DNA of 64,000 nt from Lytechinus pictus (lineage: Eukaryota), in the NCBI RefSeq assembly GCF_037042905.1, contig NC_087251.1, positions 20,586,001 to 20,650,000 on the forward strand, given 5' to 3'. Positions within the stretch are counted from its first letter, which is position 1, and each line of letters begins with the position of its first letter. Below the pieces are notes generated by a model. That model made no database searches. It was not told the DNA's origin and worked only from the letters and a program-made list of their open reading frames with translations. Of the stretch, positions 3,797-58,096 are shown piece by piece. The translations under genes were made by a program, and so were the position numbers.

Positions 3797-4178
3797 TTAA
3801 TGGATCGTTAACTGTCTAAAAGTGGCAGAGTGGTCTTGAAGAGGAGGGAAAAGAGGGGTTGATGGAATAAAAGGTTAATTATCATTATTTTATTGAAAAA
3901 AGTGGTGACAAATTTCACGACCAACAGAAAAGAATTGACAAATTAAAAAGCAGGAAAAATTAAACACTAAATAAATCAATACTTCGTTAGTGATCAATTC
4001 AGGATAAAACTCACTTTCTGGAAGGGGCGGGGAGATCATTCAAACAATCGAGGGAATCAATACGGCATTTAATTCGACCCCGGAATTCGACTGTCATCTT
4101 ATTTTGCATCTATATTGAGCAAGCTGGAGTGGGTCGACTGTCTTTGGAAAATCTGAATGCTGGTAGGAGTCAGCACAA

Positions 4179-4480
4179 AGAAAGTTATGAGAAAAAATAT
4201 GGCCATATATCATAACCTTGACCTTGTTCATTGAATGAGTGGCCATATCGACTTATCATGTTTGAAGTCACTGGAGACACAAGCAAGACAAGTTATCCCG
4301 CTCACAAATTTCTTCGCATGTAACCTTTTCAATTATTCAGAAATTTGTGAGCAAGATAACTTGTCTTGCTTGTGTCTCCAGTGACTTCAAACCGATAAGT
4401 CGATATGGCCACTCAATACTCATTCAATGAACAAGGTTATGATATAGGCCTATGGCCATATTTTTTCTAATAACTTTCTT
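4179..4480. repeat. Long near-perfect inverted repeat (~135-bp arms, ~25-bp loop)
   Basis: GTTTGAAGTCACTGGAGACACAAGCAAGACAAGTTATC / GATAACTTGTCTTGCTTGTGTCTCCAGTGACTTCAAAC and flanks. Confidence 0.9.
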
Positions 4481-7139: not shown

Positions 7140-7750
7140 TTTTTGAGATACCGTAGACTACGAAGACGTGATTTTCCAGCTTCATTCAGCTCAGCTTCAA
7201 TAACGAGAACATCGCTTCAATTCTTTTTCCTGCACGGACAAATTTCAATAATTTTGATCCAAAATGACTAATCAAACTATGGAAGAGATTTGTGACAATT
7301 ATTTCGCATCGATGAATCCAATAGCTTACAAAATTATAGAAGAAAAGAGGAAATGCATGGAGAAAAACAGGAGGAATTGGGAGAGATTGACGCAAGCTGA
7401 GAAGGACTCGCTCCTCGACGAGTGGTTTATTGACCCCGATTTAAAAATTAGGTATGAAATTCGTCTTCAGGGCCAACTCCCAAGCAATAAAGAAGCCCCG
7501 CCGGAAAGTTTTCCGCGGTTGAATATCCAAGGAGGAACGAAGACTGTCCAATATACTGAGCATGAGGATGGGTCGCAAAGCAAAGGAAACGTAAGTTTGA
7601 TTTTAAAAATTGCCCTGGGATTTTTTATTTAGGCCAGGTGATATTACAGAACTGGTAACGCTTGCGACCCGAAACTCCCCGGCCCGCGCACTTCCGGGTT
7701 CCGAATGATCATCGCCACGCTGCGGCGGTACGCTAGTAGAGACTAGTAGT
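7140..7750 (+). promoter_or_regulatory. CpG-retaining promoter/first-exon region of the C1orf198 homologue
   Basis: CpG-rich sequence around exon 1 contrasts with the CpG-poor introns downstream; no TSS can be fixed from sequence alone. Confidence 0.4.
7264..7590 (+). CDS. C1orf198: C1orf198/DUF4706 homologue, coding exon 1 (join 7264-7590,11694-11744,16577-17287,19588-19662; ~387 aa)
   Basis: ATG 7264; YFASMNPIAYKIIEEK...WERLTQAEKDSLLD...FPRLNIQGGTKTVQY resembles the recalled DUF4706 N-terminus (YFSSLSPMARKI...WARLPPAQQDEIID...FPGLRGPTGQKVVRF); GTAAGT donor at 7591, phase 0. Confidence 0.9.
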
Positions 7751-10201
7751 AGAGTGAGTGACAGAAAATAATTTCAATATTGTACGCTCTAAACTTTCCA
7801 ACATCCTTCCAAAGGGAACTTGAATAGAAAGATGATGAAAAATTGTCAAACACCTTTTCAAAGTCTTTATATTCTCAAAATAATAAAATGTGGTCAAAAA
7901 TAAAATAACTTTATACGATAATACGTACGGTACTGTCTACTGATTTTATTTGTTGTTTTCTCAATTTTTTCATTTATAGACCTAGTCATACTCAGACTCA
8001 GTCATACTAGAAAATACATGTTCAGAAATACGATACCTTTTCAAGTGACCAAAATATTTCACATGCGAAGAGGGGTGAGATTGGAAGCTGATATCGCATA
8101 AATGAAAAACAATTTCAGCAACATTTTTACATACCGGTAGAAAAGTCTGTTCATATTTTGTAGGTATTTCTGTATTTATAATTTATGGTGAAAGTTCGTT
8201 GAATTTTATAAAAATAATGACATGTGTTTGATATGATAGAATTCATGAAAAGTGTTCAGTAATAATACAATCCACTACTATACATAATCTAACTTTTAGT
8301 TTTAAGCCTCATTACCAGAATAACAAAGCCCCCGATCGCGATATTTTTAAAAGCGGTGGGCATATTGTTTATCGACCTCGAAATGTGACCGAGACTTGCC
8401 ATGTCATTTGCGAACAATTTCCAGTAGGGAAATTAGAATAAGTGCAGAATACCCCACTTGACGAAAGCATGGATGATTGATATGACCAACGACCTACGAT
8501 GTGATCGGATGTAGGAACAACATTGGTCTTAAATTGAACATGTTCCCAACGATGCTACCTCGAGCGATGTTCGTGCAGGCTCCACTCCACTTCACTACCG
8601 CTACACTACGCTCCACCTACCCGAACATCGAGACGGTGAACCAGTTCGGATACCGAGTCACAAAGGTGGGATGGAAATCATGTTTATGGTATAAATTAAA
8701 GAAAAAAAATATAACGAGAAAAATAACTTAATATCTTACTCTACACCCGTATTTCACTCCGTTTCCATCCTCCGGTTATCCTCAAAATTTGTGATTTTGG
8801 GCCAGTATCTTTTTCCTCACACGTATTATTCACGGCTGATTTCAAAACATCGTATGCGATCGCGATCGGTCGCAGTTCAAACCAAGTTGGCAGGTGCAAA
8901 ACTGCACTAGCACCAAAATATTTTCATTCATTTTAATTTCATTTTGGTCAAATTAAATCTTACCCTGGCACTAGCTTATCATGCATTTGTAGGTGTTTGA
9001 TGGGATCATTGTTTTCTTCTGCATGTGTACAGTAATAAATTTAAACTAAACAACAGATGTGTGACCGAAAATTACAGCTTCCCGTATTAAGGCATAACCA
9101 ATGATGATTATTTACTTACATTTTTCCAGCTTTTCCACTTTTTCGCCTCCGGGCCTTTTCTCATCTTCCTGTTTGTGACTTCCTAATAGTCTTCATTCAA
9201 ATTTTTCTTTTTTTTAAGTTAAAGTAACTTTCTTAAATTTGCTATCATTTTCTTCTCCTTTTGGAGCCTCTTCTTCTATTTTTTTCTGTCAAAGTCCCCC
9301 CCCCCCACCCTCTTCTTCCTTTCTTTACCAATGTATAGACCTACAGGCTACATTATACACAACAGCTAATAAGTCAACAACTTCTGTTATAGATATTTGG
9401 TGCTGCTACTTAAGTTCTACACTGTACAATGTATATCTCCAATGTACATGTTTATTACGAACTTCAAAATCCACTACAGTACATCCTAGAAAACAAAACA
9501 CAACTTTACATGTATTACAGATACATGTCTGTAAAGCTTAGGTCCTCCTTTTTTAATTAAAAAAAAACAAACGTACAGGCATACTCTATGCATAAAATGA
9601 TATGATTGAGAAAAGATTATTTGAAGAGAGTCCTAGGTACGTATACCAATAATGCAGGACTTACCTGAATTTCAAATAGAAAATACTATAAAGTTTATTG
9701 TCTGCCCTTGATTATGAATCAGGAAAAATGAATAAGGAATAAAAAGAAGTAATGCATACAAGCCATGCATATCCAATTTAATAAAAAAATCTATTTATTC
9801 CTGCTCTTCATATACATTTAGCATCTCATCATGCACTTTACAGAATACCGAATGCATGGTTGATCGTCAGCAAAGCAGAGTGTGAAGGAAAATGAAAATT
9901 CAAACTCTGTTTTCTGTTATTGCAATCAGCCTAGCACTCGGCTAACTGAAAATGTCTTTGTTTTGTAAAATTAGTGAACTGGAAGGATAACTTCAAACAA
10001 ATAGTCTTTATCATTCCTTCATTTTCCTTGGATTACATACATGTACAGTGTAGAAGCCTACTGTATAGAAGGGCAGAAAATTAACTTTCCAGAAATGTGA
10101 TTCAGATACTGCCAACCAGATTGATTTTGTTGTTCTACTCTTCATTTTTAAAGCATGAATGCATATTACAAGTTAAAAGAGGACCTAGCTCTGTGTCATT
10201 A

Positions 10202-10624
10202 GGTGGGTTCAGACCGCCTCGAAGTTCGTCAGTTCCAGGTATTTTCTGATCGGGGGGGGGGGGGGGGGTGGCATTTACCCCGATCAGAAAATACCAGGTA
10301 ATTTGGAAATGTGAAAGCAAATTATGCGTAATCTCCCCGGAAGAAAATTATGAGAACTTTCACTGGGATTTTTCCAAGGTCGTAAGTATTTGGCAATGTG
10401 AAAGCAATACGGGTGGCTGCTGAACTAGCAATTTTGAATCTCCCGCCTTGCTAGCTTGCTTATCATACCGTACACTGCGCATGCTCGTAACTTCAGGAAC
10501 TTATCCTGAAGAGATATATTTTGGGGCGTTGTGAATGTGGGAATAATTAACAGGTATTTACTTGCCTGAAAAAAGTTCTTGTAATTTAACCGGGATTCTT
10601 GTGATCAAGGCGGTTTGAAACCAC
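10202..10624. mobile_element. Harbinger-like MITE
   Basis: GGTGGGTTCAGACCGCC...GGCGGTTTGAAACCAC imperfect TIR, TTA on the left. Confidence 0.6.
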
Positions 10625-11693
10625 TAGGCATTTATACTATGTAAGTGATAATTCTAAAAAACTTTTTTCCTGGCATGCACTGACTACATGTATAGGCCTA
10701 CTCCTTACTTTCTTCATTATTGGAAACACTGGCGTACAGATGGGGGAACCAAAATTTTCATGACCAAAGAAAAAAAAAGAGAAAAGGAAAGAGGGGAGGG
10801 TGAAATAAATTATTTTCTGAATATTATGTTAACATATGTTGGATTTTTGTAATAAAAATGTCAAAATTGGTCACTTGCTTCGCTCGCTTGCAACTTTTTT
10901 GGCTCATTACATGTAAAGTACACCACTGATTGGAAAGCTTACTTTTCATTGAACATTGACTGAACAAAAATGATTTAAATGGGAAGAGAACATTTAAATG
11001 TAAGCAAATAATTGAAAAGTATCATCAAAATCATATGTACATGTATGTAAGTTAAAGAAGTTACATGTACAACACTTTAATAAAATTTTATTTCAGTTTT
11101 CCTTAAAAACATTGAAATGCACACCCTGGTCAGCATGCAAATGAGGGAACCAGTAGCTACCCACTATTTTCATATATGAAATAGTTTTCAATTTTACCTT
11201 TTTAAGTTTTACAAGTTTTAATTCCTCCTTGAATATGTGTAGTGGAAATTGTTCAACTTATTGCGAATCATTTATTAAAGGTGATTCTTTATTGTCAAAT
11301 CTGCTAAAATTGAAATATTCATCATGTGTGACATCATCAATTTTTTCATGATACATGTATGTCACCCATATTGTGCATAACTATTTCATATATATAAAAA
11401 AAAAATAAACTTCATAGCTTTCTTCAAGTACATCTACATGTACATGTATCTTATTTTGATGAAATTTTCAGTGTTCTGCTTGTTTGATAAAGTCAAAGTT
11501 CAACCAATTTTGTTGGGTTAGACTTGTCCTTTAAAGATATTACTATAAGAATTGAAGATAAGATATATGCATAATAATGTATATTGTTTTGTCATTTTCT
11601 TACTTCTATATTGTATGATACAGATTTTGAAATACTTTCTTTATGTACCCTGTAGCTACTGGTTCATTTTCTTCCTTAATTTTTCTCTCTCAG

Positions 11694-11744
11694 ACAATTA
11701 CATGGAAGGATGAGTTTTCAGGGCCCTTCTTATGGGAGACTAAG
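11694..11744 (+). CDS. C1orf198: C1orf198 homologue, coding exon 2 (TITWKDEFSGPFLWETK)
   Basis: Polypyrimidine tract + CAG acceptor at 11691-11693, GT donor at 11745; 51 nt, phase 0/0; matches the conserved WQDEHSAPFSWETK motif. Confidence 0.9.
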
Positions 11745-14056
11745 GTTTGTTGCCTGTCTGGAGTGATTGACTGACGCTTTAGTGCTTGTTGTCCACCTAT
11801 TATCCTTCTTTGCATGCACCCTCTACCCTGTTCACACTTAAAACAGGGAGTTTAGAGAACATGCTTTAAACAAACACTGGTATGAAGCAGGCTCTCAAGC
11901 TCCCTGCATGAAGGAAGATACATATATGTAGATGCTCAAGTTTACATTAACAGCTTTGAACCTTTTCCAAGTTCTGAGTTTCCACAGATTTTTCCTGGCT
12001 TAATAAAAAAAAATGAGAGCAGTTGAGGTGGGCACTCATCTACCCAAGGTAATCACATTCATGGCCTTGAGTTAATCTAAGCCTACATGTACAGTAAGTG
12101 GTATTGTACTTGCAAATTTCAACAACTGCAGAACTCTAAATTAACTTCAAATGACTTAATTGTATAAATTTATGAGTTGTTAGTGTGAACAGGGTCTTGG
12201 ATAAATCAGGATTAGATTACTAACCATTCTACCTTTCATACACTGCATTGCTTATCCTTTCATTTACTATACATAGCCTTATTTCTTCCTTGAAACCAGG
12301 GTCGAAACCATAAGGAACTAGATGAGAAGATGCAGAAGGGATCCTGAGCCAAACTAGCTATGATTGTCACGTCTCAGCACCCTTTTACTGTAGCTCTTTA
12401 ATAGACCTCAATTACAAATTTATTGTTTATCTACTGTTGAATGTTTTTTTTTTTTTACATTCTTTTCAGCTTAATAAGATAAATCTGTACGTCCATGTGC
12501 ATGTAGCTTTGTGTGTGGGGGTGAGTGTGTTTGTGTGGGGAGGGGATGTAAAGCTCTAAATTTGGAATAATGATGAACTTGTTACAGTGTAGATTTAGTT
12601 CTTTGCTCACATATTCATATTTTCTATCTATAGATAAAGAGATGAAAGGGGAAATTTGTTCAGTTTTTCAATAAGTTATTTGAAACTATTTGGTTATAAA
12701 TGGCTATGCATACATGTATTTCCATCTAAAAACTTGACCTTGTTGTCTTTTCAAATACTTTATACTGGCAGTGATAAAATAGTGGTTTGATTAAACATTA
12801 CCAAAAAAATTAGTTTAGAGAAACTTTATGAAGTACATGTAGACAGAATGTTTAACAAAATAATAATGAGTTTAGATTTTATATTCAGAAGTTTTTTTTT
12901 TTGCATCCAAAAAGTGTGCAGTGTTTTTCACACCCTCCCATGTACATTTCCAGCACTAGCCCTTTTCATGTACACTGAACACCATGTACATGTAATGAAC
13001 ATTTACACCAGAATGATAAATATGTAGTGTAGAAGAGGTCTGTAGAACTTTACTTAGTTATAATTTTATGATTTTATCAACATGCATGTCTGTACATTAT
13101 CACCATCTGCACGGTATTGACATTGTCATCATTACATGTAGACTGTGCTGGTTTTAATTTTGCATCTTCAGTGTTTGCGTTTTGTTCATTTTTTTTGTTG
13201 ATCCAGTACTTTACACATTCCCATCCTCAAACTGTTGAATGCATGTGTTTTGAAAATGTACTTTGTAAATCATTTACCACAACCCTTTTTTTTCAAATGT
13301 TAAGTACACCTGCATGCACTGTAGACATGTTCAAGTAGAAAACACAAATACTATAGAGCCTACATGTACTATCAAAAGGCAATATTTCCATGTTCAGAAT
13401 AATGTATTCATGTACACTGTATACTGCAAATATTTAATGATATTTTAAAAATAGAGAAACATGTACTCTACATGTATTGATGAAGGTTTGACAAAACTTC
13501 AACCAAAAAAATATGTTTAGATACGGTACATATTACTTTATGATTTTTATGAGAGTTATTTTTGTAAATATGTAGTTATGATTTTTTTTAAGAGTTAATA
13601 TTTTTTGATATGCTATCAGCTCCCTCATTATACTGAAAGAGAACATAATTACGTTACCATCAGAATTAGAAAGAACAAGGAATTTCATTGTCAATATGAT
13701 ACATACATGTATTTCTGGAGTAAAATTACATTTTTGTTTCCAAAATACAACAAAAAGCATTAATACTGGTAACGTAAATCTCATCTATAATGCATCAGAG
13801 AAAATCTAAATCAATCATGTTTGAAGTGCATCTGGATGTTTGTGACGTGAATGTACTTCTACATGTACATGTAATTGTGGATAAGCTACATGTTTATAAA
13901 ATATTTTGTTATCCAGCTACATGTAAGCCACGTCATACTGTATGTTCGTAGTACATGTACTTGAAATGGGAGAAAGCAGAATTTAGACCAAGGATTCTGC
14001 TTTTTTAAGAACTTGTTGAGAAACTCTCTATGAAAACAATTAACCACAAGTTATTT

Positions 14057-14415
14057 CCCGAGGGGGGGGGGCAGTCAAATATATTGCTGTACACACACGT
14101 GACCAAAAAAACGTGTTTAAAGGGGTGTTTTTTCAGTTTGGACGCAGGCGGCACGTGCACTCGTTAAGGGTATCAAAAACACAAATTTTCAAAAAAGGGG
14201 GTATTTAGGGTATGCTTTTTTCCCAAGCCTTTTCCCCGGGGTCATATTCTGGCTTGTTTTGGTGCCAAATTTGTAAATAAAGCCTGCAAAAAACTTGTTT
14301 AGGGGGTTATTTTGCACACAGAGAAATACTCGTTTAGGGGGTGTTTGATATTAATAATTTGGCCACGCGTGTGTACAGCAATACATTTGACTGCCCCCCC
14401 CCCCTCCCTCCCGGG
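14057..14415. mobile_element. Unclassified TIR MITE (CCCG-G-run termini)
   Basis: GGGGCAGTCAAATATATTGCTGTACACAC...GTGTGTACAGCAATACATTTGACTGCCCC; direct repeat TTATTT (or GTTATTTC) on both sides. Confidence 0.75.
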
Positions 14416-16576
14416 TTATTTCTTTAGAGTTAATTATGTCAAATATTTGTGCAAAGTGGCAATTTACATGCATGTTTTCCCTGGATTATTAGGCTTGTAC
14501 ACTAATCCACAAATCAAGGATAAATAAATTGCTCAGTAAATGTGCAGGAATGAACTTGTCATATGAATTAGTGCTGAGCCTGGTGTGGAATGTATTGATT
14601 TGGTCTTTGCTGTGATCTATCCTCGCTTAAATTTGACAAGTATTAATAAATTTGTAAGTACCTGTTTGTGAAAAAGAACTTCTGCTCCTACATTTGTTTC
14701 AAATTTGTTTGACAACTAACAAAAAAAATGCCTCTTTAGTTTGCTGTAAGTTCCTACTGTAATTCCTCTTTTGGAATTCTTGTTGCAGTGTTCTGAAGAG
14801 TATTAACAAGACTTATAGCAATGAGTGTTTTTGTTTTGAGCAGTTGTAATCAAATCAACTAACTACGTGTACAAGTTAAGGGCAAATGGGCAATCCAACC
14901 TCGATAATGAAGTGGTACAGTACATATACTGTTAATTGGAAAACAGGGGGGGGGGAAACAAGGTTTTAAATGCTTGAAAAAATGGTCAGTAGGACAAGGA
15001 ATAAGAAGTTGATTGTTTTGACAAATGACATCCAAGCAAATCTCAAATTTCTAATTTAGTGATTCAACCTTTGCATGGTAGTGGATCACTCTTCCTAAAT
15101 TTTCAAGATTTCAAAAACTTGAACATGATTGCCTTTCACATGTATGCACATTATTGTATATTTTGCTTGTAATAACAAAGGGTTTTTGAACCCCTCAAAG
15201 CCAGTAAATATAATACACATAAATATACTTCATTTGTCCAAACTTTCATGAAACCACTTCTCTAATTATCTGTTTTTCAACTTTGAAACAACTCATCATG
15301 AGGGTTGGATTTCCTAACAAAGCTTAAATTGCAATTAACTACATGTAGTAGAAAAAATGTGTTCTTGTAAGGCCTACACATGACAAATAAATTTCTATTT
15401 TATATATTGCCTTTACTTCTGATGCAGGGCTGCTTCTTGTGCGATTTTTCTCTTAAAGTCTGCCACTTGGTAACCAAAAAAATATTTCTGGGCAGAGAAA
15501 CTGATAAGTTCTCACACTATATGACTACAGTGTACATAATTTGTTGGGATCAATGGATTCATTTGTTTATTTTTTCCCTGTTGCATTGTTATTCTGATGG
15601 GAAAGGCTGGTAGGATGTCATTTAAAATTACTCATCCAAATATCACTATTGCATGGCTATTTGACTTTCAATGATAATGATATTCATTATACTGTTCATA
15701 AAAAGGGAAACTGTCTACAGTTCTACATGTACACAGTACTAGCTTTTCTGATAGTCTTTGAAACATATACATGTAGAGTTGTACAGGTCTTTCAAAAGTT
15801 CTTTAAAAAGTTACTCATTCGTTAAATATTTGGATAAAGTTATTGTCAACCGAAAATTCACGTGAAAAATAATGTTTCTTCATTTTCATACAACTTTTGC
15901 AGATGGTAATAGGTAAAATTTTATCAAAAGTTTTTATGCCTGTATACATGAATGTGTACATTAAGTTTGATAAGTGTATACTTTTCTGTCTTGAGGTGGG
16001 GGGGGGGGGTTGCACCCACAAATGTACACCATGTACATGTAATAACACTTTACCCACAAATGTTCATGTAAAGGGTTTGGGGCATTCGACTTCATGTACA
16101 TGTATTAGTCCTTTGAAACATACATGTACTAATCATTTGTAGCCCTTTATCACATTAATTATAAAACACTTTGCAAAAAGAAATATTTTCTCTTTTAGAG
16201 TCAACTCTCTTTGCAATGTTATTTTTTTTATTTGTTAGATACATGTACATGAATATCCCAAAGAATTTGTCACTGCATGTATATTTATTTCCTTTATGTA
16301 CTCATTTTATAGGGCATGTCAACGAAAAATTTAGATATTACAAGAAAATGATCTTTGACTGTGTGGAGCTTAGTGAGTCTACAAATGTAGTTTCTGTACT
16401 CATGTGCATGTGTGTTGTGCTTTTTGTAAGTCATAACCAATTGGGTTGTTTTCCACATTTTTCACTAGGTCTCCGTCACCATCCCAATGAGACAAAGTTA
16501 GAATTCACCATTCTAGGAGTTTAATATAGCAGTTTCGTGAATTTTCTAACTCTTACTATTTCATTTGCAACCTCAG

Positions 16577-17287
16577 TGTCAACAGGACCTACCCATGATG
16601 TCCCCTGGATCTATCACAGCACAATCAACAAGGAATGGAGAATATCCAGAGAACAGATTCTCTCTCGCTCTTGATGCCAACGATGAGAGCCAGCTCATTG
16701 TTAACTCTACAAAGTCCAAGGGGAAGGACGGTAAACGGGCACCGGATCCAGCCGAGAAACCTGACAAGACAAAACTCAGCAGGAAGGATTCTAAGAAAGA
16801 GGAGCGTGCCAAGGAGAAGGAGAGGGCCAGGGAGAAGGAGAACCAGAAACGAGAGTCTCCTGTCCCCATAGTCCAACAGCAACCGAAGATCGGTCAATCT
16901 CCTCTTGCCGATATGAACCAGATCATGATGGACAAGAATGGAAAGGGACCAAAGAAAGAGAAGACAGAAAAGGCCAAATCACCAAAGGCCCCTAGAGGAC
17001 GTGGCTCGGGTAAAGCCTCGCCTAGGAGGGAAGGCAAGAAAGAGAAAAACTTTGACCTGGAGGGGCTCCTTCCTGCATCTGATCCAAAGGAGGAAAGGTC
17101 CCTAGAAGGAATCAACTTTTCAATGTCTGGATTGGAGACAACGGAAAGTGATGGACTGTTGTCATCGACCTCAACTACTGGAGGCCTCACCTCTGGACCT
17201 TCGGGATCGGTGCAGCATACCCCTGTGCCATCTTCACCACCACCCTCTTCACCTCCTGCTTCAGCAGCAAGTGCTGGAAGTGATCAG
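16577..17287 (+). CDS. C1orf198: C1orf198 homologue, coding exon 3 (K/E-rich and S/P-rich low-complexity region)
   Basis: CTCAG acceptor ending 16576, 711-nt open frame (ORF 16565..17359), CAG|GTATGT donor at 17288; phase consistent with flanking exons. Confidence 0.85.
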
Positions 17288-17431
17288 GTATGTATTTTGA
17301 ACACTTTAGACTACAGTCATCATGCTCCATCATACAAACTTCATAATAAAAGTACATAGAATTTCACATTCAAATAAGATGTTGTGATTGTTTTGTTTTT
17401 TTCTATTTATTGAAATAACTTGTTATTGTTA

Positions 17432-17688
17432 TAGAGTACTGAAGTATGACGTCAGTTGCCATGGTGTCATGGCGGGCTGGTTCTCAACAGTCACAGCTGA
17501 CGATCGTCTGTACGCATTTGTATGACTTTAGTTCGTCTGAATAATGGGTTGCAAGCGATCAAATTCCGGTAGCAGCCATGTTCTCCTATGAGAAACCCAC
17601 GCTTTCATTCGGCGGGTCCATTTGTTTTGAACCAGTCCGTCATGACACCATGGCAACTGACGTCATCACTCATCACTTCGGTACTCTA
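17432..17688. mobile_element. Palindromic MITE
   Basis: TAGAGTACTGAAGT..ATGACGTCAGTTGCCATGGTGTCATG / CATGACACCATGGCAACTGACGTCAT..ACTTCGGTACTCTA. Confidence 0.7.
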
Positions 17689-17975
17689 TTGGGATGGACT
17701 AGGTATTTTAAATAAGGAATTAAATTACTTTATTGAAGTCCATATTTCTCTTGTCAATTCTTTTTATAAGATTTTTTTTTTCTCAGAATGCAATTTATTG
17801 ATTGACTCTTCGGTGATTTACTAATGGATAAAATCAATATTAGGATTCTGTTATTGTATCTGTAAAAAAGAAATGTTAAAAATGATTTTAGCTTCATGAG
17901 TTGATCAATCCCTGAAATATTTTGTAGGCTCATTTACAATGCCCACAATACATTGAAAACCATATTTACATGTAA

Positions 17976-18515
17976 AGGTCAAGTCCACCCCCAGAAAATT
18001 TTTGATTTGAATCAATAGAGAATAACACTGAAAATTTCATCTAAATCGGATGTAAAATATGAAATATATGACAGACATTTTTAACTTCCCTTAATTTCAC
18101 AGAACAGTTATGTGCACATATTGGTCGGTATGCAAATGAGGGGACTGATGACATCACCCACTAACCACTAAAACAAAGTTTTATTCCTTCCTGAACATGT
18201 AGAATTACCATTGTTCATACATGTATTATGGTTCGGTCAAGTTGGTCCTTATTATCAAATCTGTAAAAATTGATATATTGTATAATTCAAACAATAAAAA
18301 ATAACAGAAATAGTGAGTGAGGGACATCATCGACTCTGTCATTTAAATGTCACTGAGCTATGCATATAACTGTTTTATGAAAAATGAGCGAAACTTTAGG
18401 ATGTCTTATTTTTGAAATTTCCTATTTTGCATATATGATTTTGATGAAATTTTTAGTGTTACATGTATACTTGTTTTATTTTTCTCAATTGATTTTTCTG
18501 GGGTGGACTTGGCCT
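17976..18515. mobile_element. Kolobok-like MITE (AGGTCAAGTCCACCC family)
   Basis: AGGTCAAGTCCACCCC...GGGGTGGACTTGGCCT; left TTAA altered to TTACATGTAA; related partial copies end near 4585, 5457 and 11530. Confidence 0.75.
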
Positions 18516-18887
18516 TAAAAAAGGAGGGGGAGTGGAAACTTAATATCTGCTCAAAACTTGATTTTGATAATGTACTGTAAGTAATAGTCAGTTCTTTTAT
18601 AGCACATATCATGTACCATCTCATCTTGGCCTTGGAACTGTGATATTATTACCCTAGCCTAGCCTGGCAAACCTTTAACAGCACAAAAAAGTAATGATTT
18701 AATTACAACAATAATTTTCTTACAATTCTTTGAGAATTGTAGACATACTACATGAAACATGATTATCGCACCATCAAGCTTAACAGATTAACTTATAATG
18801 TAAGGAATTGTTTTAACGATTCTAAGTCACTTTGATAAGAAATCTGTATATTGAACTTCTAATTACTTGATGAAGGTATAGAGTTAT

Positions 18888-19035
18888 ACTTTAGTCACAT
18901 TTGCTGTACGGCAACCATACAGCGAATTGAAAATAGCAATTTTATTCATTTTTATTCAACCACCTATATGTAGCTGGTACAAAAATGTTAAAATGGCTGT
19001 TTTCAACTTGCCGTAGAGCAAATGTGACTGAGGTA
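18888..19035. mobile_element. Small palindromic MITE
   Basis: TAGTCACATTTGCTGTACGGC...GCCGTAGAGCAAATGTGACTGA. Confidence 0.65.
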
Positions 19036-19277
19036 TTAAATAGTCATCCAACTTTCATACATTTATCAGTTTCTTAAATCATTGGTTTTTATTTTTGCTG
19101 TAGAAAGTATAAACATCCTTTTGCTATTAAATCAATTAGTTAATTACATGTATATGTAAATGAAAACTTTACATTATCTTATTGCACACTTCACTTTAGT
19201 TGAATCAATTTAAAGAACCCCCCCCCCAAAAAAAAAAAAAATATATATATATGTTTGTAATTTCACTTCCATTTCGT

Positions 19278-19537
19278 GGGGCATCGTGGTCTAGTGGTTA
19301 CGAATCTCGTCTTTCAATGAGAGGGGTGTGGGTTCAAATCTCAGCCATGGCCTGTTTTCCTTTAAGAAATTTATCCACATTGTGTTGCACTCAACCCAGG
19401 TGAGGTGAATGGGAACCCGGCATGTACCAAGCGCCTTCAGCAGCTGGAGCTACAGCCGGGGTAATATATAGTGCGCCATTGAATAGGAAACTATATAAAT
19501 CGGCGCCTCATAAATGCTATATATCATTATTATTATT
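19278..19537 (+). mobile_element. tRNA-derived SINE in the last C1orf198 intron
   Basis: A box TGGTCTAGTGG, B box GGTTCAAATC, CACTCAACCCAGGTG domain, (TTA)n tail. Confidence 0.75.
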
Positions 19538-19587
19538 CCATTCCATAAGTGAATTTAAATATTTTCCTTCTTTGATTCCATCCATAG

Positions 19588-19662
19588 GCTTCTGCTTCAG
19601 AAGGTGGCGGAGGAGCCGAAGGAGAGGAAGGGGCTTCCTTCGATTTCTTATTAGCATGGTAA
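19588..19662 (+). CDS. C1orf198: C1orf198 homologue, last coding exon (ASASEGGGGAEGEEGASFDFLLAW*)
   Basis: Pyrimidine tract + TAG acceptor ending 19587; C-terminal FDFLxxW-stop like the recalled C1orf198 terminus (GFDFLDNW). Confidence 0.88.
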   Translation, partial: ASASEGGGGAEGEEGASFDFLLAW

Positions 19663-21337
19663 CCAACCATCCACCGATGACAGCTAGGGCTGGATCAGCT
19701 AAGGATTAAAGAAATAACATTAATGGTTATGAAAAGCCATGTAACTTGTAACTTTATCTTGAGCTTTGCCATGAATATTTGTAATGTACATGTACAGCTT
19801 CATGTTTTATGTCGCCATATGAAAAGAATGAACTTGCTGGCTCCAAGTAGTTTTTTTTTTGTTCAAAGTGAAATGCCAACAGGGTAGTATCATTTGAAAT
19901 ACATGTATAGGCCAAAATGGGTGTTCTAAATGTATTACTGCCTTCCAATGGCATAAGGAAGTATTAAAGTAATGTATTTGAATTATTAGTATTTTCTTAT
20001 TGCACTCTTTTTTGGGTTCAAATTTGCATTTGTTTTTGCGACACAAAGAAAGAGCAACATTTGTGATGCTCAAGCAACTCTTTTTATAGACTGTTGTTAC
20101 AAGTTCACTGTGGTCAGATGTATGACATCACACAATCTTAGTTCGTGCTGATGGGTTGTTTTTTTCTTTGGATCAGGCATGCTTCCGAGATCTTCAAGGA
20201 TGTAGAGCTAAATGTCCTTCATAGATTCAAAAGGAGAATTGTTGAGCCATTTGCTACTAAAGCAGCTTTTCCATTTTGGGCATGAACTGCAGATTCTACA
20301 TAGACCGTGTTGATTGTAAGAGAACAGCCTATTACATGTACTGTATGTGCATCTCTTGATAAGAGATATGTTGTGCAAGATGTAGTTTTTCATTAACATT
20401 CGTGTAAATCAGAGATAAATTTTGCTCTTTGGTTGGAAATATCACATTTCTCACTTACTTCCTTTTGCCATTAGACTATAAAAAAATAAGTGTTTCTCCT
20501 GAGGAGAAATCAAGGCATATCAAGTTATATAAACAAATTATAAAAGAAAATTGCAAGAGGGGATGAGAAACATTTTTTTGGGGGGGGGCTTTTAGGTCAG
20601 TGTGGTGTTTTGGCCATGGTGTTGTATTTCTGAATTCTTGCCATTTGTAGACACTATTAACGGCAATTGTCAGTAGTTATTCAGCTGATTTATGTACAAG
20701 AATAGACGAGCATTATAAAAAAAAATTAAATGAATGTATGCATTATCAGTCCTCAAATAATATTGCCCTTGCTTTTAGTAGGCATTTTTTTTTTAATTCT
20801 CTGCTGGAAAGAGAAGTTTGGCTCCATGAGTCACTTCAATCGTTAGATATTCCTAGATCAGCATTTGTACTGCATGTGGCTATTAGTATTGCTCCAAGAA
20901 CTTCTTGAGTACAAAATGGGAATTCCGATTGAAGTGGGCTGACCAGGGTGCTCTTCCCATAAAGCTGTTTGTAAGTAATGCACGACTTCTACACATGACT
21001 GTTGAGCTGATTATGAGTCAAGTTTTCACCGGTTTAAAAAAAAAACAGACTGATGTGTTCATAAACCTCATCAAACTTTTACAAATAATAGTTTGCATTT
21101 TGCTCGTTAACAAAGAGGATTTTGAGAGATCAGATTTCAACTAGCTGCAGGGGAATAAAATTGATTGAGAATCTGATATCACCAAAGAAGTGGTCACCGG
21201 TCGTATGTATAAAGTCATCCCATAACTTTCAAACATCTTCATGAAGCAGTGGCGCCCCATTATATGTTGCATGGTCTATGCCCCTATGCACAGGCAGTTG
21301 ATGTCTTTTTTTTTCTGAACTCGCACTTTACTAGTTA

Positions 21338-21739
21338 AGACCACCGCACACCTTACAACTGTTCGCGATCCGATTTTGGAACAAATCGCATTTTGCTCAT
21401 TTTCTAAAAATGTGAATGGAACATATCATTTTATTTGAGGTTAAAATTAATTGAAAGAATACATTTTGAAAGATTGCAAGCCTTTATTTTGGAGTAAAGG
21501 CAAAATTGGTTTCAAATTGTAGCCAATCGTACGACTGCTATGACATCATTACGACTAGATATCAAATTTGCTTTTATTCTAAGGATGATAGCATAGTCAC
21601 AGATTTGATCATAGGTATTCGTACGATGATTTTGAACATTACACAGTAAGATATTCCTTGTCTCAGTATTAGCATCAAATTCTACTAGATTTTATTCCAA
21701 AGTCGGGTCGCAGATCAATCGTAAGGTGTGCGATCGCCT
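21338..21739. mobile_element. Harbinger-like MITE in the putative C1orf198 3' UTR
   Basis: TTA|AGACCACCGCACACCTTAC...GTAAGGTGTGCGATCGCCT|TTA. Confidence 0.7.
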
Positions 21740-24700
21740 TTAGTATTGCCCAAGTAATAGGGACAGGATTCTTCAATAGATGCAGGTACTGCTTTCTCTG
21801 TGGTGCTAAGCTGGCAGAGAAGCCATTTAAAGTTTGTACATGGTGTGGCTTGAGTAGTTGTAGATACCGTACTAGTTGGTACTCAATCATGTTCTTTGAA
21901 TCAATGCAAGTGCTACCTGCAGGTATTGTCCAGTAACACAACAGGTGCTATAGATTTCTGGATTACGCCCTCTTCCTTTCTATGCAGTCATGGCTCAAGG
22001 GGCTTCAGAATGGAGGTGGACATTGGACCTTTTTGTTGTAAAGATTTGTATTTTATTAGTTGTGGGGGGGGGGGGGTCATTGATATGTAAGATATATATA
22101 GTTTAAAAGAAATGTAGTATAATATATTGAAGAAACTTTTATTTTGCTTGTTCTGTAGTCTGTACCAGCCCATTTTCAAAGTAACCCTATTCCCATTTCC
22201 TTTCCCCTTGAAAGTAAATCTCCAGATTCCAGAGCTGTCTGTTTCATTTTACACAATGCCAATCCTTGAATCGAGTTGTAGAATATAATCAATGCAAAGT
22301 GGGTTTCTTTCTTCATTTGTCATTGAAAGAATATCAAACTTATGAACTTTCTCTTGAGGTGATGTCAAGGTTTCCTCCGTAAGATTGGATGTAGCAGAGA
22401 ATCAGGAATAAAGATTTCTTTGTTGGAAGAATTGTGTAGGGCTGTAAGAAATGGTTGTCATGAAGGATATTACTCTCTTTTAGACAAACTGAACATGCTC
22501 TTTGGTTGGGGAAGGAGGTATTTATTGAAGGATTTTGCTGAAGTAAAATGGCTACCTTGGGCCTATAAAGAAGATTAGATGGTGGGGTAGTTTAATTATC
22601 TGTTTAACATGCAGTCTGTTTTGCAAAATGTGAGTTATCATTTGCATCGATATTAAATCGTCAGATAAATATTTGTTTGATTTTGTAGAATTGCAGACAG
22701 AAAACAGATTGTATCAGTATATTCTGTGTCATAATAAACAATTTATCAATCCACGTTTTTGAAAGCAATCCTATTTAAGAGATGATGCTAATCTCAGGAT
22801 TATCACCATTGGTCATGTCTTAATCCATTTAATCTGATTTTGTATGCTCCAGTACTTTCACACTTCTTCCTGTCAAGAAAATTCACATAAGGCAACAAAA
22901 TATCTGACGATTATTTTATGTGATAACACTTTACCTTTACATGCAAATTCTTAAAGATTTAGCATGTGACAATGTGCATGTGCTAGCTGATGTTTGGTGA
23001 GATTGAAGTTCTTGTAATTTGTAAATTCCTGGTAACCTATTAATTTCAGTTGTTGAGAGGAGAGCACTTCTCTTTCACATTTTCAGGCTAAATGCCTGTG
23101 AGTTAAACAATATGTTTGAACAAATTACATTTTTGGATTCCCATTAATTTAGCACACATTTTCAAAATTAGAAGAATACATATTTTCATCATTAGGAAGA
23201 TGTGACAGCAGATGATCATGATCATACTATTTGCAGATTACCTTGATAAAAGATTATTTCGTAGTGCATGTCTGTGAGTTGTTTGCAGTAGAATTTGCAC
23301 TATTTGGAAATACCCCCCCCCCCCCCATTCTTGTATTCAGTGTAAAATTGTCCCCACCCAACTTTTTCTGTGTAACTATTAGAGTCAAGTCTCAGTTTGC
23401 AGTTTTTAGTGACAAAGCAGTATGTTATCTGCTTGCTATTGACACATATCTGAGCTAACCAGTATCAGATTACTCATCTCTCAATGATATCTCCAGGCAT
23501 AATCTTCTACTAGAAATCAAGAAGAAGCAATTATTGCTTTGCAATATACTTTACATGTACATTTCTAACTATTAATAGTTTTGCTATTACTTGCAGGTCT
23601 AGGTTCAGACATATGCATGAATGTTTTTCATATAGTGCAGTATTTAGAGTCTACCTGCAATATGATTCTGTTCAATACATTTGTGGTACGAATAAGTACT
23701 ACAAATCTTCAAATCTCAACATTCATATTTTCTTAGGCTTCATTTCCTGAAGCATTGTTATTTTTCTTATGAGTAATTTTCAATTTTGGAGTTTCAAGTT
23801 TGTGAAAAGATTTCTGGTGAATATTTTCAGCAGTCTTAAATTGTGATTTGTTAATGATTTGTACTTGAAAATATGAGAAGTTTGACATATGTGCATTTAC
23901 CACTGCTTATGGTAAGCCATGTATGAAATGTTGCAAATGTTGTAAGCAATTTTATGGAACACCTTAAATATAATTTGTAATGAGTTTTCATAGTGTGATA
24001 GAAAAAATAAATCAGTCATTTTCATTGTATTCATATTTATTGTTTATACAAAACTTCTACATGTACCTGTAGTTTCATTGATATGAAAACTTATCAACCA
24101 CTGCTCTGGTCTCATTTGGGAACAAAATTCAGTAAATTTTTGCTTGTTTAGGAAATAAACCATCAAAACAAGAATCAACAACACAATATTTGTGATATAT
24201 GGTGTTTTTTTAGCGGGGTATCATATTTATTTGTCCCCAAGTACTTGTGAAGTTAATCACACTGTACAACTTCCATTTAAATGGATTATACATTGTAATA
24301 TGTATTCAAATTTATTTAAAGCAGTGCTGATTAAAAGTTATTATATTCATTCCTATCCAACTGCAGTCTTTGAATTGGGAATATGATTCCAATCTAATGC
24401 AACCAACTTGAATAGCCTACAGTGCAGACACTCCACTCCCCCAATTTTATTAGGTAGTTGGAGAGATAGTCTGTTGAATAGGACTTAAGAAGGTGTCAAA
24501 TCATAGCCAAAAGCTCAAAAATTTGCTAATTTGGTTGTATACTGTATTCAAACATAATGATTTGATTTTCATTTAACTTTATTGGTGTGGAGTATCCATG
24601 TTTGTTATACTTATGTTTAAAATAGAATATATATGTATATTTATGTTTGAGACTGAATGTATTCAGGAAGCTCTCTGTGTGCCAAAATATTTATTTATTC

Positions 24701-26230
24701 ATATATATGTTTGTTTAGTTCGTGAATTTGTTACATCAGCGCTGCAATTTAGCTGTTAGGCACTTGTGTATGTTTTTAGATACATCATAATGTCTTGTAT
24801 TGTTTATGTATTCTCATTTATTAGTTTTATATTTTTCTATTGATTGATTTATTTTTTAGTACCAGTAGGTATAGAGATTTACAGGTATGTGTTTCATTTT
24901 ATGTTTCGATGCATGTGACCAAGTGTATTTGTTTTCTAGTATCATTAATAATGTAATTTGAGAAGACACATATTTGAGGAGGGTAGGATATGTAAGAATA
25001 TAATGCAATTATATCCAGAACAACCCCTGTCTTGTTGACCATTACACCCATCCCCCTCCGCGACTCCATTCAGAGACTGGACCTGTAGTACAGGGGCAAG
25101 TTTCACATAGAGAACTTATAACTTTGTCATTATGGTAAATACCTTGATAACAGAGCTCTGGGCTCAATCAGAATCAAAGTTTTCATGGTAATTATTATAA
25201 TCCAAGTCTTTATGAAAAGGGGATGAGGGTGATGTTTTAAAACACATTTTTTGGGGGAAACTTTTTACCATTGACCAACACAATTTTGTAACTCTCAATT
25301 CATCATTAGAACTTGGCTCAGCTTTCTTTTACCAGTTCTTAATTCAGTATCAAAAGACTATGTTAAGGTGTCTTCCCTAAATAAGTTTATAAATTTTCAA
25401 TAAAATGATCTGCTTGCATTCGGGCTTTTGAGAGAGTTGATACATTTGGGGTCATTTCACCTTGTGTCAATTAATTTGGTTTCCAGATCAAATTACCGTC
25501 AATGCTTAAGGTAATCTATTAGATAAAGATATACTAGTATTTTATTTCATTGCTCGTCAATGAGCTACATGTAAAACCCTCAAGAGGGCGTTTTCTCTGA
25601 AGGACAATATATTTTGATATTTCATTCAGGGTTCAATCCTTGTCTACTGTACCTATGCCCTTGAGCAAGGCAATCAACAGAGCTATTTTGTTGGTGCCAA
25701 TGTGTGCACATGTTTAAAAAAAGGGGACACATAATGCCCAAACTGATCGTTTATATGCAATTATACATAATTGTATGTATTTAAGATTGTAGAGTATTCA
25801 ACAATTTCTATTTTAGTATTTCTTAGCATGATGTATTCCTCTAATACATGTATATAGCTTACTGCATGCTCCTGAAGTTGATTTACTATAATTTTTTCTG
25901 AAATAAAGTAGTTTAACTTAGATATCTGATTCTATTTGAATGTTCAGTAAACTTGTTCATCTGTGAATTATATGCTGGGTGCTTTTTTGAAAAACATGTG
26001 AGAGAGATTATTTCTAGTTATTGAAATCATGTATCAATGTATAGGAAATGAAGGACACCCTTTGATTCATCAAGAACAATATTTTCCCCATTAAAACAGT
26101 AACGATTTTCCTTAAAATGATGATGAAGTATTATTGGTTTGCACTATGTATTTCAGATTTCTCTAATTCATTCCAGCTGGCATAATTACTAGACTACATT
26201 ACAAATGTTCCATCCTGGGTAAGGGTCCTG

Positions 26231-26440
26231 GGGGTGTTTCACAAAGATTTATGTATGACTTAAGTCGCACTTAAATCCCGACGCGTACATGATATGCAAC
26301 ACGCGATCTTATTGATAGATACGCAGTAGTGCCCGTCCTCATGACACGATCTGACCAACGCGGTCAAGCCTTTTATACCGCATGCAACTAGGCATTTAAG
26401 TGCGAATCTAAGTCATACTTAAATCTTAGTGAAACACCCC
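26231..26440. mobile_element. Harbinger-like palindromic MITE
   Basis: GGGGTGTTTCACAAAGATTTA...TAAATCTTAGTGAAACACCCC flanked by CTG/CAG. Confidence 0.75.
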
Positions 26441-27523
26441 CAGGCCCTATGTCATTAGTTAAGGTCCTTAGCTGGTGATGTTCAGTGTTTTAAGTGACTG
26501 TCATATTGCCTCCAGTAGAGATAAGATGTGCATTGACTAACTCTAAATTAATATGTCTGTAATTAGAAAAGAAACTGCATTTTTATTCGTTTGTTTATAA
26601 AGTGAAGCAAAGGCAAAAATAGTAATGTCGTTTCTGCACTGTTTTTTCGTAATTTTTTTCCTGTAAAATTAAAGGAGTCAACCTTGCCATGGACCTGTAG
26701 TATAAGACAAAAGCAGTTTTAGAATTTATTGAATGGGTTACTATATACTGCAAAAAAGGGGAGAAGAAAGATATGAAAAAGAAGTTATTCCTTATGGGGG
26801 ATTTTACTCTTTCTATATTGCATTTAATTATCAAAATAATCCCCCCAAAAAATCAAACTTGAATTTATTACTTGAAGATAGTGCTAGATCTATTCTAGTC
26901 ATTAACAAGTTCCCTATATATTGTGGTGATGGGAATTAGGGAATCATTTTGCCAAATGGCTAGTGCAATGTTACTCAGAGCTTGATGTATGAAATTTGAA
27001 AACGGGCTAATCCAATATGGGGGGGTTCATTGTATTTGTGAATGATAGAAATTCTCGTACATGTAATGGTGACAGATTTTCTCAAATATTTGCTTGTTTC
27101 CTTATTAGTCATAAATAAGTTGAATTGAGATAACATGCAGCAATATAGGAAGTCTTTATGTATCATCAAACATTGTGAATATTTGTCAACTTGTTAAAAA
27201 AAACATGAATTGTATACTGCATGTAGAATTATTTTGTGCTAGCAATTTTTTTTATTATTACTATTGTTAGTATTCATAGAGAATTTTGCACAAATTTCCT
27301 GCTTTGTGTCATGCATGGAACATGTATTCCATTTGTGATTATTGTTCAATGTTGCAAACCTATATTAGAATAAATAAATATAGTTATTAATTTGTAATTT
27401 CTTGTCTGATTTTTTTTCTTGTCAATTTTAGTTTTCTGTCTTGCCGTTACGGATAATATAGGCATATTTGAAGGATATGTATGTTTAACTACCAAACATG
27501 AATGTACATTATTAATACCGTAG

Positions 27524-29977: not shown

Positions 29978-32245
29978 CATGGGCGGAAATCCCAGGGGGG
30001 ACGTGTCCCCCCTACCAAAAATAGTAGGGGGGACACAATATCAAATGTCCCCCCTACTATTTTTGGTCTTTTATGATGGAGAAAAATGCATCATTCACAT
30101 TCAAAATAATACATGTATTTTGGACTAAATGACCTTGCATTTTGGGTGAAAACCTTTGTTGATTTTTTTGCTTGTCAAGTTTTCCAGAGTGAATAAAATA
30201 AGATGAGGGGAAAACTTGGAAAATAAAAAGAATCTTTCATGTCACTATATAAAATTTTCGCTCGCGCTTCGCGCTCGCATTGCATGTTAGCCGATCTTTC
30301 AATATGGAGCTTAAATATCATGTTTGGAAGACAATATACATTATACATTTCGCCTCGGAAATCGAACTTTCATCATTTTTTGTGATTTACAAACGGATTT
30401 TAAAAAAAGTGATCTGTAAAAGTTACAGCTTTATGGTCTAAATATTGACATTTTCTACTCGCACTGAGAGCTCGCAAAATTCGATTTATTCAGTACCTAT
30501 TATTTTTGTGTATTCCATTTAGTTTGAAAATATCCCTTTTCAAGTCTGATTGTCAAAACGTAGCAGATAGTGCTACTCGTATTTTGATTGGCGAGTTATG
30601 TATGTCTCAATATTGATTTTCATGACAGTTTATCAAAGATTTTGGCTCGCGATTTGCGCTCGCATTGATGGTTAAAAATATTTTAACTGATGCATTCTAT
30701 TCCTAATTACAAAAGTGCTTGAAATGTCCAGTTTTCAGGCCATAATATCATCAGATTTCTTGCCCGCATTATGCATTAATAAATAAGATATCAATTTAAT
30801 GATTAAATTGTCCCTTTTGTTTCATCTCGCGCTTAGTAAGAGGAATAGGAAGATAGTCATCATTTTCGTATGATTTGTCCTAAGGATGTCCCGGTCCTAT
30901 GTCAAAACTCAAATAATAATGAAAAATATCAGCTCTTTATTAAGTGTGATCCATATCCACCTCACAATTTTCCTAAAAAGTGCTTGAAATATATAGCTGA
31001 AATTGACTATTTTTTTCAGATCGGAATATCAAATAGTTTAAGCTCGCGCTTCGCGCTCGCTGATAGATGTGTAAAATGTCGAGATTCTAGGTCTAAATCT
31101 TAAACACGCTCATATTTATTCAGATATTCAATTTGTTCTCTATTTAAATTATTATCCAGTTTCAGATCACAATATCAAAAATTTTCTGCTCGCGCTTTGT
31201 GCTCGCATTATTAATGTTGAAAGATCCCCTATTACTCATCCTTTTCATGATTTACAAAACATGAGTGTCCCGTTTTTAGGTCTAAATCTCGAATTTTTCT
31301 GCTCACGCTTCGCTTACATCAATTGTTTAGTTATATAGCTACCCTGTTCACGATTACAAAAATTGATTAAAATTTTCGATTCTTTTTGAAAAAATGTCAA
31401 AAATTTTCAGCTCGCGATTCGCGCTAGCATTGATTATTGAAATATGTAACGTCTTCATGGCTAAGTGCAAGCAGTCCTTAACAAGTACCTTTTCGATCAA
31501 TTCAAATTAAACGTATATGAACATTTTCTGGCTGCGTTTTGCACTCGCTTTATTAATGTAAGGACCGGGTGTAAGAAAGACCCCCCATTACTCATCCTTT
31601 TCATGATTTACAAAACATGAATAGTGTCTTGTTCTTAGGTCTAAATCTCAAAACTTTCCGCTAGCGCTTCGCGTTCGCATCAATTGTTTAGTTATATACC
31701 TATTATATGTTTAAGTTACAAAAAGTGCTTAGAATTTCCAGTCTTTAGGTAAAAATTTCAAAATAATTTCAGCTCGCGCTTTGCGCTCGCATTATTTGAT
31801 TGTTGAAATATGTAACGTCTTCATGGCTAATTGCAAGCAGTCTTTAACAGGTACCTTTTCCATCAGTTAACCTCTGCTCGCACTTCGCGTTCGTAGTAAA
31901 TATTTAGTTGTATATACATCTTTTTCAGGATAACAAACATTGCCCAGAATGTTCAAATTTTAGGAAAAAAATACATAAATTTTCAACAAAAAAAATTGCT
32001 CGCGCTTCGCGCTCGCATTATATAAATAAGGACAATGATATCATATATTTATGTTGATTTATAAGAATAAAGCTAAAAAGTGACCATGAGGACTACTCCT
32101 TCAATGAAACAGACAAAAATTACCTTCGAGCGGCCGATCGGGGATTAACATACGGCTGAAAATGTTTTCGCCCCCCCCCCTATTGGCGAAGGCTGGATCA
32201 GCCCCTGTTGTCCCCCCTACCTTTCGGGACAGATTTCCGCCCATG
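29978..32245. mobile_element. Non-autonomous hAT-type element (2.27 kb) with an internal GCTCGCGCTTCGCGCTCGC-motif array
   Basis: CATGGGCGGAAATC...GATTTCCGCCCATG TIRs; 8-bp TSD CTCATAAG (29970-29977, 32246-32253). Confidence 0.88.
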
Positions 32246-56800: not shown

Positions 56801-58096
56801 GTGACATGACGATATTACGAAATGACGGAATGGTTGTCGAAAATGAACAAAATGAAGAAAATGAACAAATGTGAAAATGAACAACTGAAGAAAATGAACT
56901 GGAGGAAATGAACCAACTGATCGAGAAAAATGAAGAAATTATGGGATGACGGAATGACGGATTGGTAAAATAGCGGTATAACGGGATGGTGAAATGGAGG
57001 TATGACGAATTTTGATACGTTGGTATGATGTCCTGTGTGTTGAAATGACGGTATGACGAAAGGGTGAAATGGCAAAAGGGTAAGATAAAGGAATGATGAA
57101 ATGACGGACGACGGAATGGTAAAATGATGGTATGACGGGGATTGTGATATGACGGAATGACGGTATGACGGAATGATGAGATGATGGAATGGTAAAATGA
57201 CGGTAATACGGAACAAGGAAAATGAAGAAAATAAGGAATGGTGATATGACGATATGACGGAATGATGAGATGACGAAATGGTAAAATGACGGTAATACGG
57301 AATGATGGGATGGTGAAATGGCGGTATGACGGGAATGGGGATATGACGGTATGACGGAATGGTGATATGAATGGTTGACGAAAATGAACAAAATAAAGAA
57401 AATGAACAAACTGGAGGAAATGAACAAAATGAAGAAAATAAGGAAATGGGAGAATATGAAGAAAATGGAGAAAAGGAAGAAATTGGAGAACATTAATAAA
57501 ATGGGGACAATATTGGAAGAAAATTGAATAAACTTAACGAATGAAAGTAATTAAAAAAAAGTTAAGAAAGTATGAAAAAGTATAAACTTTTTGGGGTGAC
57601 AAAATAGGCATCAAAGAGCGGAAAGTAGAAATAGGAATAAATTCTTCGAATTTTTGAACAGCGTAATACAACAACAAGAAATGACGTTAAACAAGCGTAA
57701 TAAACGGTGATAATTAGTCGAAATATACCACCCGCTTGGTTGATCGATCTGTTCGATATGATACTCAAGTTTACATGTATGACAGTTCAAATAAGAATAA
57801 AGAGCTATTACGTAATACGCGTGCTGGTTTTTCGCAAGATGCATGACGCCATGGTTTGGTGTCAAAATAAGTCCCTGACTATTGATATTTGGTTTTCTTT
57901 TCAATGTATCTCCTTACCGTGACGCTCTCCTTTGTGCTTGACTGCTGTACAAGTCCATGCCCACGTACCATACTCGTACTCTACTCCTCCTCGGAAAATG
58001 ATCGTTGCCTTGTTGACGATCTTGGATCCACACATCCACTGGTGAGAGTGGTTCGGACTGGTTGTCGCGCCCACTTTGACGTCATTTGTTTTTCGG

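Follow-up and report, generated by a model that had tools for sequence, protein, structure and literature searches.

The octamer TACATGTA is written again and again into the body of one gene of Lytechinus pictus, and the question is how it came to be there. The stretch analyzed here, called the window, comprises 64 kb (RefSeq assembly GCF_037042905.1, contig NC_087251.1, positions 20,586,001 to 20,650,000). An exact-word count gave 45 copies of TACATGTA in the window, with 0 at 1-9399, 40 at 9400-27100 and 5 at 27101-64000, and the dense part lies inside a gene with a DUF4706 domain, which we take to be C1orf198. In this study, the octamers proved to be a genuine excess, to be insertions and to go with the CpG-poor body of the gene, and we believe that they are probably (at a probability of about 0.6) excision scars of Tc1-type transposons, in which both 2-nucleotide (nt) overhangs were kept after end-joining.

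The excess of TACATGTA in the CpG-poor part of the host gene was approximately seventy-fold (40 copies against 0.58 expected). Markov models fitted to the region gave expectations of 0.65, 0.58 and 1.56 at orders 0, 1 and 2, orders above 2 being inflated by the octamers themselves, and shuffles of the whole window gave a mean of 1.21 copies and a maximum of 5. TACATGTA was the top-ranked 8-mer in 9400-27100, and the runner-up among the TA-NNNN-TA words had only 5 copies. A first-pass annotation, made from the letters alone, had reported at least 30 octamers in 9.4-27.1 kb and about 5 beyond; the counts agree with this, and every coordinate that it gave was correct, as were the doublets (11435/11441 and 13860/13866). 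It had allowed that the enrichment might vanish under a model of local composition, and the enrichment persisted under all three orders. Its statement that the octamers saturate the transcription unit stood only in part: the field does lie within the gene, but the CpG-rich 5' part is empty, and octamers mark 2.4% of the TAs in the gene and 3.8% of those in intron 1. Stacking of the scars was marginal (9 of 40, where simulation gave 4.5 on average; p 0.06), and no clear single-base flank consensus was seen with the doublets removed (1 of 24 cells at p 0.003).

The segments 7264-7590, 16577-17287 and 19588-19662 together form a 370-residue frame. Intron 1 holds 28 of the 40 octamers, intron 2 holds 4, the 3' untranslated region (UTR) holds 8 and the coding exons hold none. 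The field stops approximately 300 bases upstream of the poly(A) signal. No run among those listed is recorded as RNA. In run X1, from the best-matching organism, one contig spans the exon 2-exon 3 join and other contigs extend to 27355. The first mates of run X21 were almost all on the minus strand in repeat-free bins, which indicates plus-strand RNA, as in most stranded libraries. The exon 1-exon 2 join lies outside the stretch covered by read mapping (9400-27500). The DUF4706 match and the RNA to approximately 27.36 kb support the earlier assignment of the field to the C1orf198 transcription unit. The 3' UTR at 19663-27400 is very long, carries several MITEs (miniature transposable elements with inverted repeats) and is covered by RNA-type contigs.

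Each of the 45 sites was set against the remainder of the window and against MITE alignments, and a homologous copy was found for 10 octamers. Nine of the ten were longer than their copy, that is, they showed a net gain at a former single TA, and the remaining one was a substitution. The gain was exactly 6 nt at three octamers (17967, 18460 and 11062). At 17967 it was clean and lay at a MITE terminus, and all ten other readable MITE ends were insert-free. The gain at 18460 came with one substitution, with 10 letters between the anchors against 4 in all seven anchored arms (four were not anchored), and where 11062 had 10 letters, three arms had 4 and another had 8 (seven not anchored). The other gains were irregular: +10 at 11038, readable as TACATA stacked on TACATGTA; +16 for the doublet 11435 and 11441 jointly, not a clean +12; +6 with wide anchors and +5 locally at 11352; and +3, not clean, at 18218. 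Outside the gene, the inverted-repeat arms flanking the gain at 57772 were 97-100% alike on both sides. The direction of change was read from several copies for the MITE sites and from a single pair for 57772. Three of these sites had been offered earlier as internal controls for a change from TA to +6; 17967 behaved exactly so, 18460 did so apart from its extra substitution, and 57772 proved to be a +7. Insertion at TA was therefore borne out, and a uniform +6 was not.

These comparisons also bear on CpG decay, by which the octamers would have arisen through substitution from TACGTGTA, TACACGTA or TACGCGTA. The octamer region is indeed CpG-depleted, with an observed/expected (o/e) ratio of 0.36 against 0.77 and 0.87 outside. 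CpG-bearing homologous sites, which the earlier reading had named as the sign of such decay, were seen at 0 of the 10 sites, 9 of which had gained length; the three words have 1, 1 and 0 copies in the 64 kb; and ACATGT is at background once the octamers are collapsed (9 against 7.8). CpG decay as the main source is thus refuted, with practically no probability left to it, and the octamers are insertions at TA. A MITE copy outside the gene has a 9-nt gain containing ACATGT at 4490-4498, and on the consensus it coincides in position with the +16 gain at 11435. The gain at 4490 may be a decayed case, and the common position is a possible hot spot.

At 44 of the 45 sites, the direct repeat around CATG was TA only, the remaining site being a doublet, so longer target duplications are excluded. 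Footprints of the hAT/P type consist of a target duplication of approximately 8 bp or of flank-derived inversions. This type was rejected here, where TA alone recurs on both sides, the core does not vary and the composition of the flanks is close to background. For companion words, the octamers were collapsed first and TA-Nn-TA words were ranked within the gene body. The leaders were TACATA at n=2 (33 against 23.6 expected, 1st of 10), TACAGTA at n=3 (+5; 11 against 4.4, 1st of 32) and TACACTGTA/TACAGTGTA at n=5 (+7; 5 against 0.31, p 1.8e-5, 1st of 512). Among ten one-base insertion variants of the octamer, only those with a central G/C were enriched. TACA-N-TGTA was found 7 times against 0.92 at spacer 1, with no enrichment at spacers 2-6, which places the joint at the center. 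The companion series is what two ends meeting centrally would give, mostly CA with TG and sometimes CAG with TG, and the TACAGTGTA and TACAGTA companions lend support to a Tc1-like source.

The palindrome could also be built where purines and pyrimidines alternate (TA/CA/TG tracts), by slippage or by template switching. In the window, 11 of the 45 sites lie in runs of at least 14, against 9.8% expected (p 0.004), and two gains fall at TACATC of the MITE consensus. A metagenome scan for triple octamers gave at least 118 loci, mostly microsatellite-like (flanks were available for 80), and the majority consist of tandem repeats or of tracts of this kind (over 863 sites, the alternating run had a median of 16); similar runs occur in five viral contigs. 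Against this, the window has a median run of 11, with 20 of its 45 sites in runs of 10 or less, the clean +6 sites had TA alone with the CA/TG template absent, and enrichment is much lower for other words that alternate (TATATATA, 4 against 1.2; TACATATA, 6 against 2.2). We regard slippage as improbable. The viral contigs (L001-L005) have short local runs of a TACATG unit in DNA that is otherwise octamer-free.

The TACATGTA excess follows CpG depletion rather than transcription. Octamer count was correlated with CpG o/e at rho -0.53 over 64 one-kb bins, which are not independent, and at rho -0.50 over 20 bins inside the gene alone; 35 of the 45 octamers fell within the 18 bins with CpG o/e below 0.5. 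In intron 1, the CpG-rich first 1.4 kb held 0 octamers at 114 TAs against 28 at 625 TAs further in (p 0.009, with the boundary set from CpG). The two MITE copies in the gene held 8 octamers at 88 TAs against 0 at 183 TAs in six outside copies or fragments, which belong to the same family and to a related one (p ~1e-4), and the difference held within the same family (p 0.006). The Tmem26 gene further along the window had a CpG o/e of 0.71 and 3 octamers in 10 kb. Because CpG loss is inherited, it points to germline methylation, and the CpG-depleted gene body is probably germline-methylated. In cnidarians, methylation is reported for constitutively expressed genes and their intronic transposons (PMC8857917).

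The same distribution can be held against the idea that the octamers are selected sites of a DNA-binding protein. TACATGTA is a proven site of a Myb-related factor in Phytophthora promoters (PMC11134190). The octamers of the window avoid the promoter zone, are inserted within MITEs and an inverted-repeat arm, and are surrounded by a decayed halo of one-mismatch words (34 against 17.7), and this explanation has hardly any probability in our judgment. The halo also speaks to age. One-mismatch words exceed background by approximately 16 per 40 intact octamers, a ratio of 0.41; by our own derivation, which is sensitive to the background model, the scars would stand at approximately 5% divergence after a single burst, and a ratio near 1.1 would be expected of a long steady state.

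We propose that the source was probably a group of TA-targeting Tc1/mariner-type elements with CAG...CTG ends, which would have been excised in the germline. The proposed course begins with the gain seen at TA, of 6 letters and at times a few more or fewer. For Tc1 and Tc3, it is established that TA is duplicated on insertion and that two transposon bases are left per flank on excision. Both non-complementary CA-3' overhangs would then usually be retained, and fill-in by an X-family polymerase across the break during end-joining would yield TA-CA-TG-TA; a 3-nt cut at one side would yield TACAGTGTA, and the usual resolved 3-nt product would be TACAGTA. Pol mu is known to carry out templated fill-in of non-complementary 3' overhangs, less efficiently beyond 2 nt (PMC2396419), and we infer that a Pol mu-like (X-family) polymerase may have acted at the scars of the window. 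The cycle would be concentrated in the CpG-depleted gene body, with which the scars correlate: methylation might stimulate excision, the transposase might target the chromatin, or end-joining might be favored over homologous repair.

Published footprints resemble the scars in part. The dominant footprint of Tc1 in Caenorhabditis elegans is +4 (78%), TACATA/TATGTA (PMC12632400; 10.1101/2022.08.01.502254), and that of Sleeping Beauty is +5, TACAGTA/TACTGTA, with six minor types, the overhangs being 2 bp for Tc1/Tc3 and 3 bp for Sleeping Beauty (10.1101/659086). Like those of Tc1/Tc3, whose somatic mobilization is described as dependent on end-joining, the scars are TA-bounded and would consist of the terminal CA/TG bases; unlike the +4 somatic products, they are +6, inherited and fixed. 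With Sleeping Beauty they would share CAG ends and mixed 2-/3-nt overhangs, and TACAGTA is mildly enriched in the window, but TACATGTA and TACAGTGTA are absent from its eight listed types. TA-CA-TG-TA had been called an established Tc1/mariner footprint, whereas TACATGTA is not canonical in these accounts of Tc1 and Sleeping Beauty footprints. CpG methylation raises excision of Sleeping Beauty, Frog Prince and Minos (PMC3680223), and these inverted-repeat/direct-repeat elements offer a possible route from methylation to more excision; the effect was seen on plasmids in human cells and is tied to H3K9me3 chromatin, not to an invertebrate gene body, and it does not hold for Tc1 with its simple terminal inverted repeats (TIRs). 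Excisions have likewise been recorded by comparative genomics in rice (PMC4423477), where mostly deletions and filler DNA are found, insertions outnumber excisions and a single stereotyped scar is absent. We believe that the TACATGTA field works like a Tc1/mariner footprint, with its gain at TA and its duplication of TA only, yet we do not count it among the known types of footprint because the canonical product is not the dominant one and both the element and an occupied allele are putative.

Several observations weigh against the Tc1-type reading. The window was searched for a complete TA-CAG...CTG-TA element and none was found, so that 40 scars stand against zero standing copies. The published dominant footprints are +4 and +5, not +6, and in the gene the +6 word leads with 40 against approximately 1 expected, the +4 and +5 words having 33 against 23.6 and 11 against 4.4. 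After correction, the n=5 word alone stays significant, and the companions at n=2 and n=3 do not. The cases of +3, +7, +10 and +16 need extra events. In another assembly, the G/C-centered companion was not significant (2 against 0.57) and A/T-centered words were found 5 times against 0.65; the CAG series was not at the top for n=3 or n=5 in three metagenome groups chosen by eye (3, 3 and 5 loci). The octamer alone is not diagnostic because clustered octamers in public collections are mostly microsatellite-like, although those of the window are still mostly in ordinary sequence. The link with CpG is not strict, since CpG-poor UTR bins at 22-25 kb hold 0-1 octamer each, and it comes from one positive gene with methylation read from CpG loss. 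Methylation was no help to Tc1, Himar1 and Hsmar1 and lowered simple-TIR excision (PMC3680223). The insertion:excision ratio of rice Mariner is approximately 2.6-2.8:1, the reverse of the window, and "perfect" excisions were 8 of 94 across all superfamilies (PMC4423477). In run X1, judged by contigs with fewer than 6 gap letters over the site, there was no 6-nt gap at 23552, 24058, 25845 or 27058, the four of the eight UTR sites that could be judged. Site 12711 reads TACATGCA in both DNA runs of a related organism, a substitution and not a gap, so this site is older than the split or arose by substitution.

The search for a source or an occupied allele gave little. The first-pass annotation had pointed to a Tc1-like end at approximately 60361-60373; the sequence is present, and we likewise take it to be Tc1-like, but no partner end was found within the window. 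When four runs were mapped on 9400-27500 at likeness 80, repeat copies made up most of the result. The view covered 40 of 1802 rows of substitutions, 12 of 540 rows of indels and 15 of 1182 joints, and none of these indel rows or joints was informative for an occupied allele or a 6-bp indel. Over five sites, the gap totals of related-organism contigs could hold a 6-nt loss, and none was displayed. A search of metagenomes with the MITE-end pattern gave 0 loci.

Part of this evidence suits a one-step insertion without a lasting element, either an abortive, hit-and-run transposase or an undescribed repair or templated-insertion process by which methylated gene bodies would receive TACA/TGTA half-sites where a TA is broken. 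The lack of standing elements beside 40 scars, the irregular gains and the non-canonical footprint would all be expected of it. So would the other assembly, where three loci repeated the spacer-1 excess of TACA-N-TGTA (7 against 1.21) mostly with a central A/T, so that the CAG reading did not replicate there. The G/C-centered companion of the window matches real CAG ends, to our knowledge no enzyme performs such one-step writing, and we consider the process unlikely, though it keeps a real share of the probability. The three loci (L048, L060 and L061) are CpG-poor (o/e 0.47) non-coding metagenome contigs with dispersed TACATGTA, 21 copies in 17.5 kb when the clusters that were matched are set aside; of 45 listed frames, 16 were scanned and 0 had a Pfam match. 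A further candidate is an element with CATG at both ends that is cut with a 4-nt stagger, whose self-complementary ends would religate to a single product. It would account for one dominant +6 product and a weak +4 class, and its model is presumably a Minos-like footprint, putatively +6. No TA-CATG...CATG-TA was found in the window and the extra central base is not predicted by it, which leaves it little probability.

If excision is the source, the octamer field may be a fossil record of sites of germline transposition and repair. Cut-and-paste activity is undercounted by standing copies, and through a fixed scar one can see events that would leave no other trace. New here are the matched inside/outside MITE test, the CpG-rich 5' gap, the RNA-defined 3' boundary and the center-junction series; no description of scar fields of the TACATGTA kind was found among the papers listed in the literature searched, which takes in few older or subscription papers. 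If the link with CpG-poor gene bodies is genome-wide, one can test if methylation of gene bodies in invertebrates favors transposon excision or skews repair, a point that matters for the debated role of this methylation. A 6-bp scar preserves the reading frame and could add two residues to a protein, although the coding exons of the host gene hold none. More tentatively, and possibly rather than probably, germline-methylated gene bodies would be the preferred target of a stereotyped +6 insertion process at TA, whose scars would far outnumber its standing elements, whether through very fast Tc1 turnover with full-retention end-joining or through an undescribed one-step writer. In that case, octamer density would map the methylated chromatin of the germline from sequence alone, and the process would be a major unrecognized source of non-frameshifting indels.

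Table 1. Coordinates of the host gene, the octamers and the related features in the window.
Feature	Position	Strand	Basis or remark
CpG-rich 5' zone, o/e 1.14, octamer-free	7150..9000		probably transcribed
Exon 1, DUF4706 gene	7264..7590	+	Pfam PF15797, E 6e-19; GT donor
Octamer field, 40 TACATGTA	9507..27065		word count against gene model
Five companion words TACAGTGTA/TACACTGTA at 9418, 10044, 12583, 13413, 15526	9418..15534		0 outside the gene
MITE copy in the gene, 5 octamers (11038, 11062, 11352, 11435, 11441)	11020..11532		MITE alignments
Exon 2, coding, without octamer	16577..17287	+	joined to exon 3 by an RNA-type contig
MITE copy in the gene, 3 octamers (17967, 18218, 18460)	17965..18520		MITE alignments
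Exon 3	19588..27400	+	stop 19662; 3' UTR about 7.7 kb; AATAAA 27369; final octamer 27058
Octamer by substitution, no length gain	30110..30117		repeat-copy comparison; background, not scar
7-nt gain (extra T and TACATG)	57771..57779		right inverted-repeat arm against left arm near 53765; outside the gene
Orphan TA|CAGTG... end, GGGACGCACTG|TA at 60361-60373	60321..60373	-	no link to the scars shown

Other features of the window were also recorded. At 19020-19535, the contig of the related organism has approximately 180 letters against approximately 515 in the window, and a tRNA-like short interspersed element near 19270-19500 may be absent there. The gain at 57772 lies in an element of approximately 5.45 kb at 53126-58580, with long inverted arms starting from AGTAGT and a 6-bp flanking duplication, CAGGAC. 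It contains internal repeats with an 8-bp period and a C2H2 zinc-finger frame at 55454-55936 on the minus strand, and its right arm is interrupted by a MITE near 58095-58255. Its termini and duplication fit what we take to be a non-autonomous Polinton. The Tmem26-family gene lies at 38453-48449 on the plus strand, its last exon recognized by Pfam and its first exon by eye, and its intron holds remnants of reverse-transcriptase elements, read by eye at 39.5-40.0 kb and indicated by a weak zf-RVT match at 41.8-42.3 kb.

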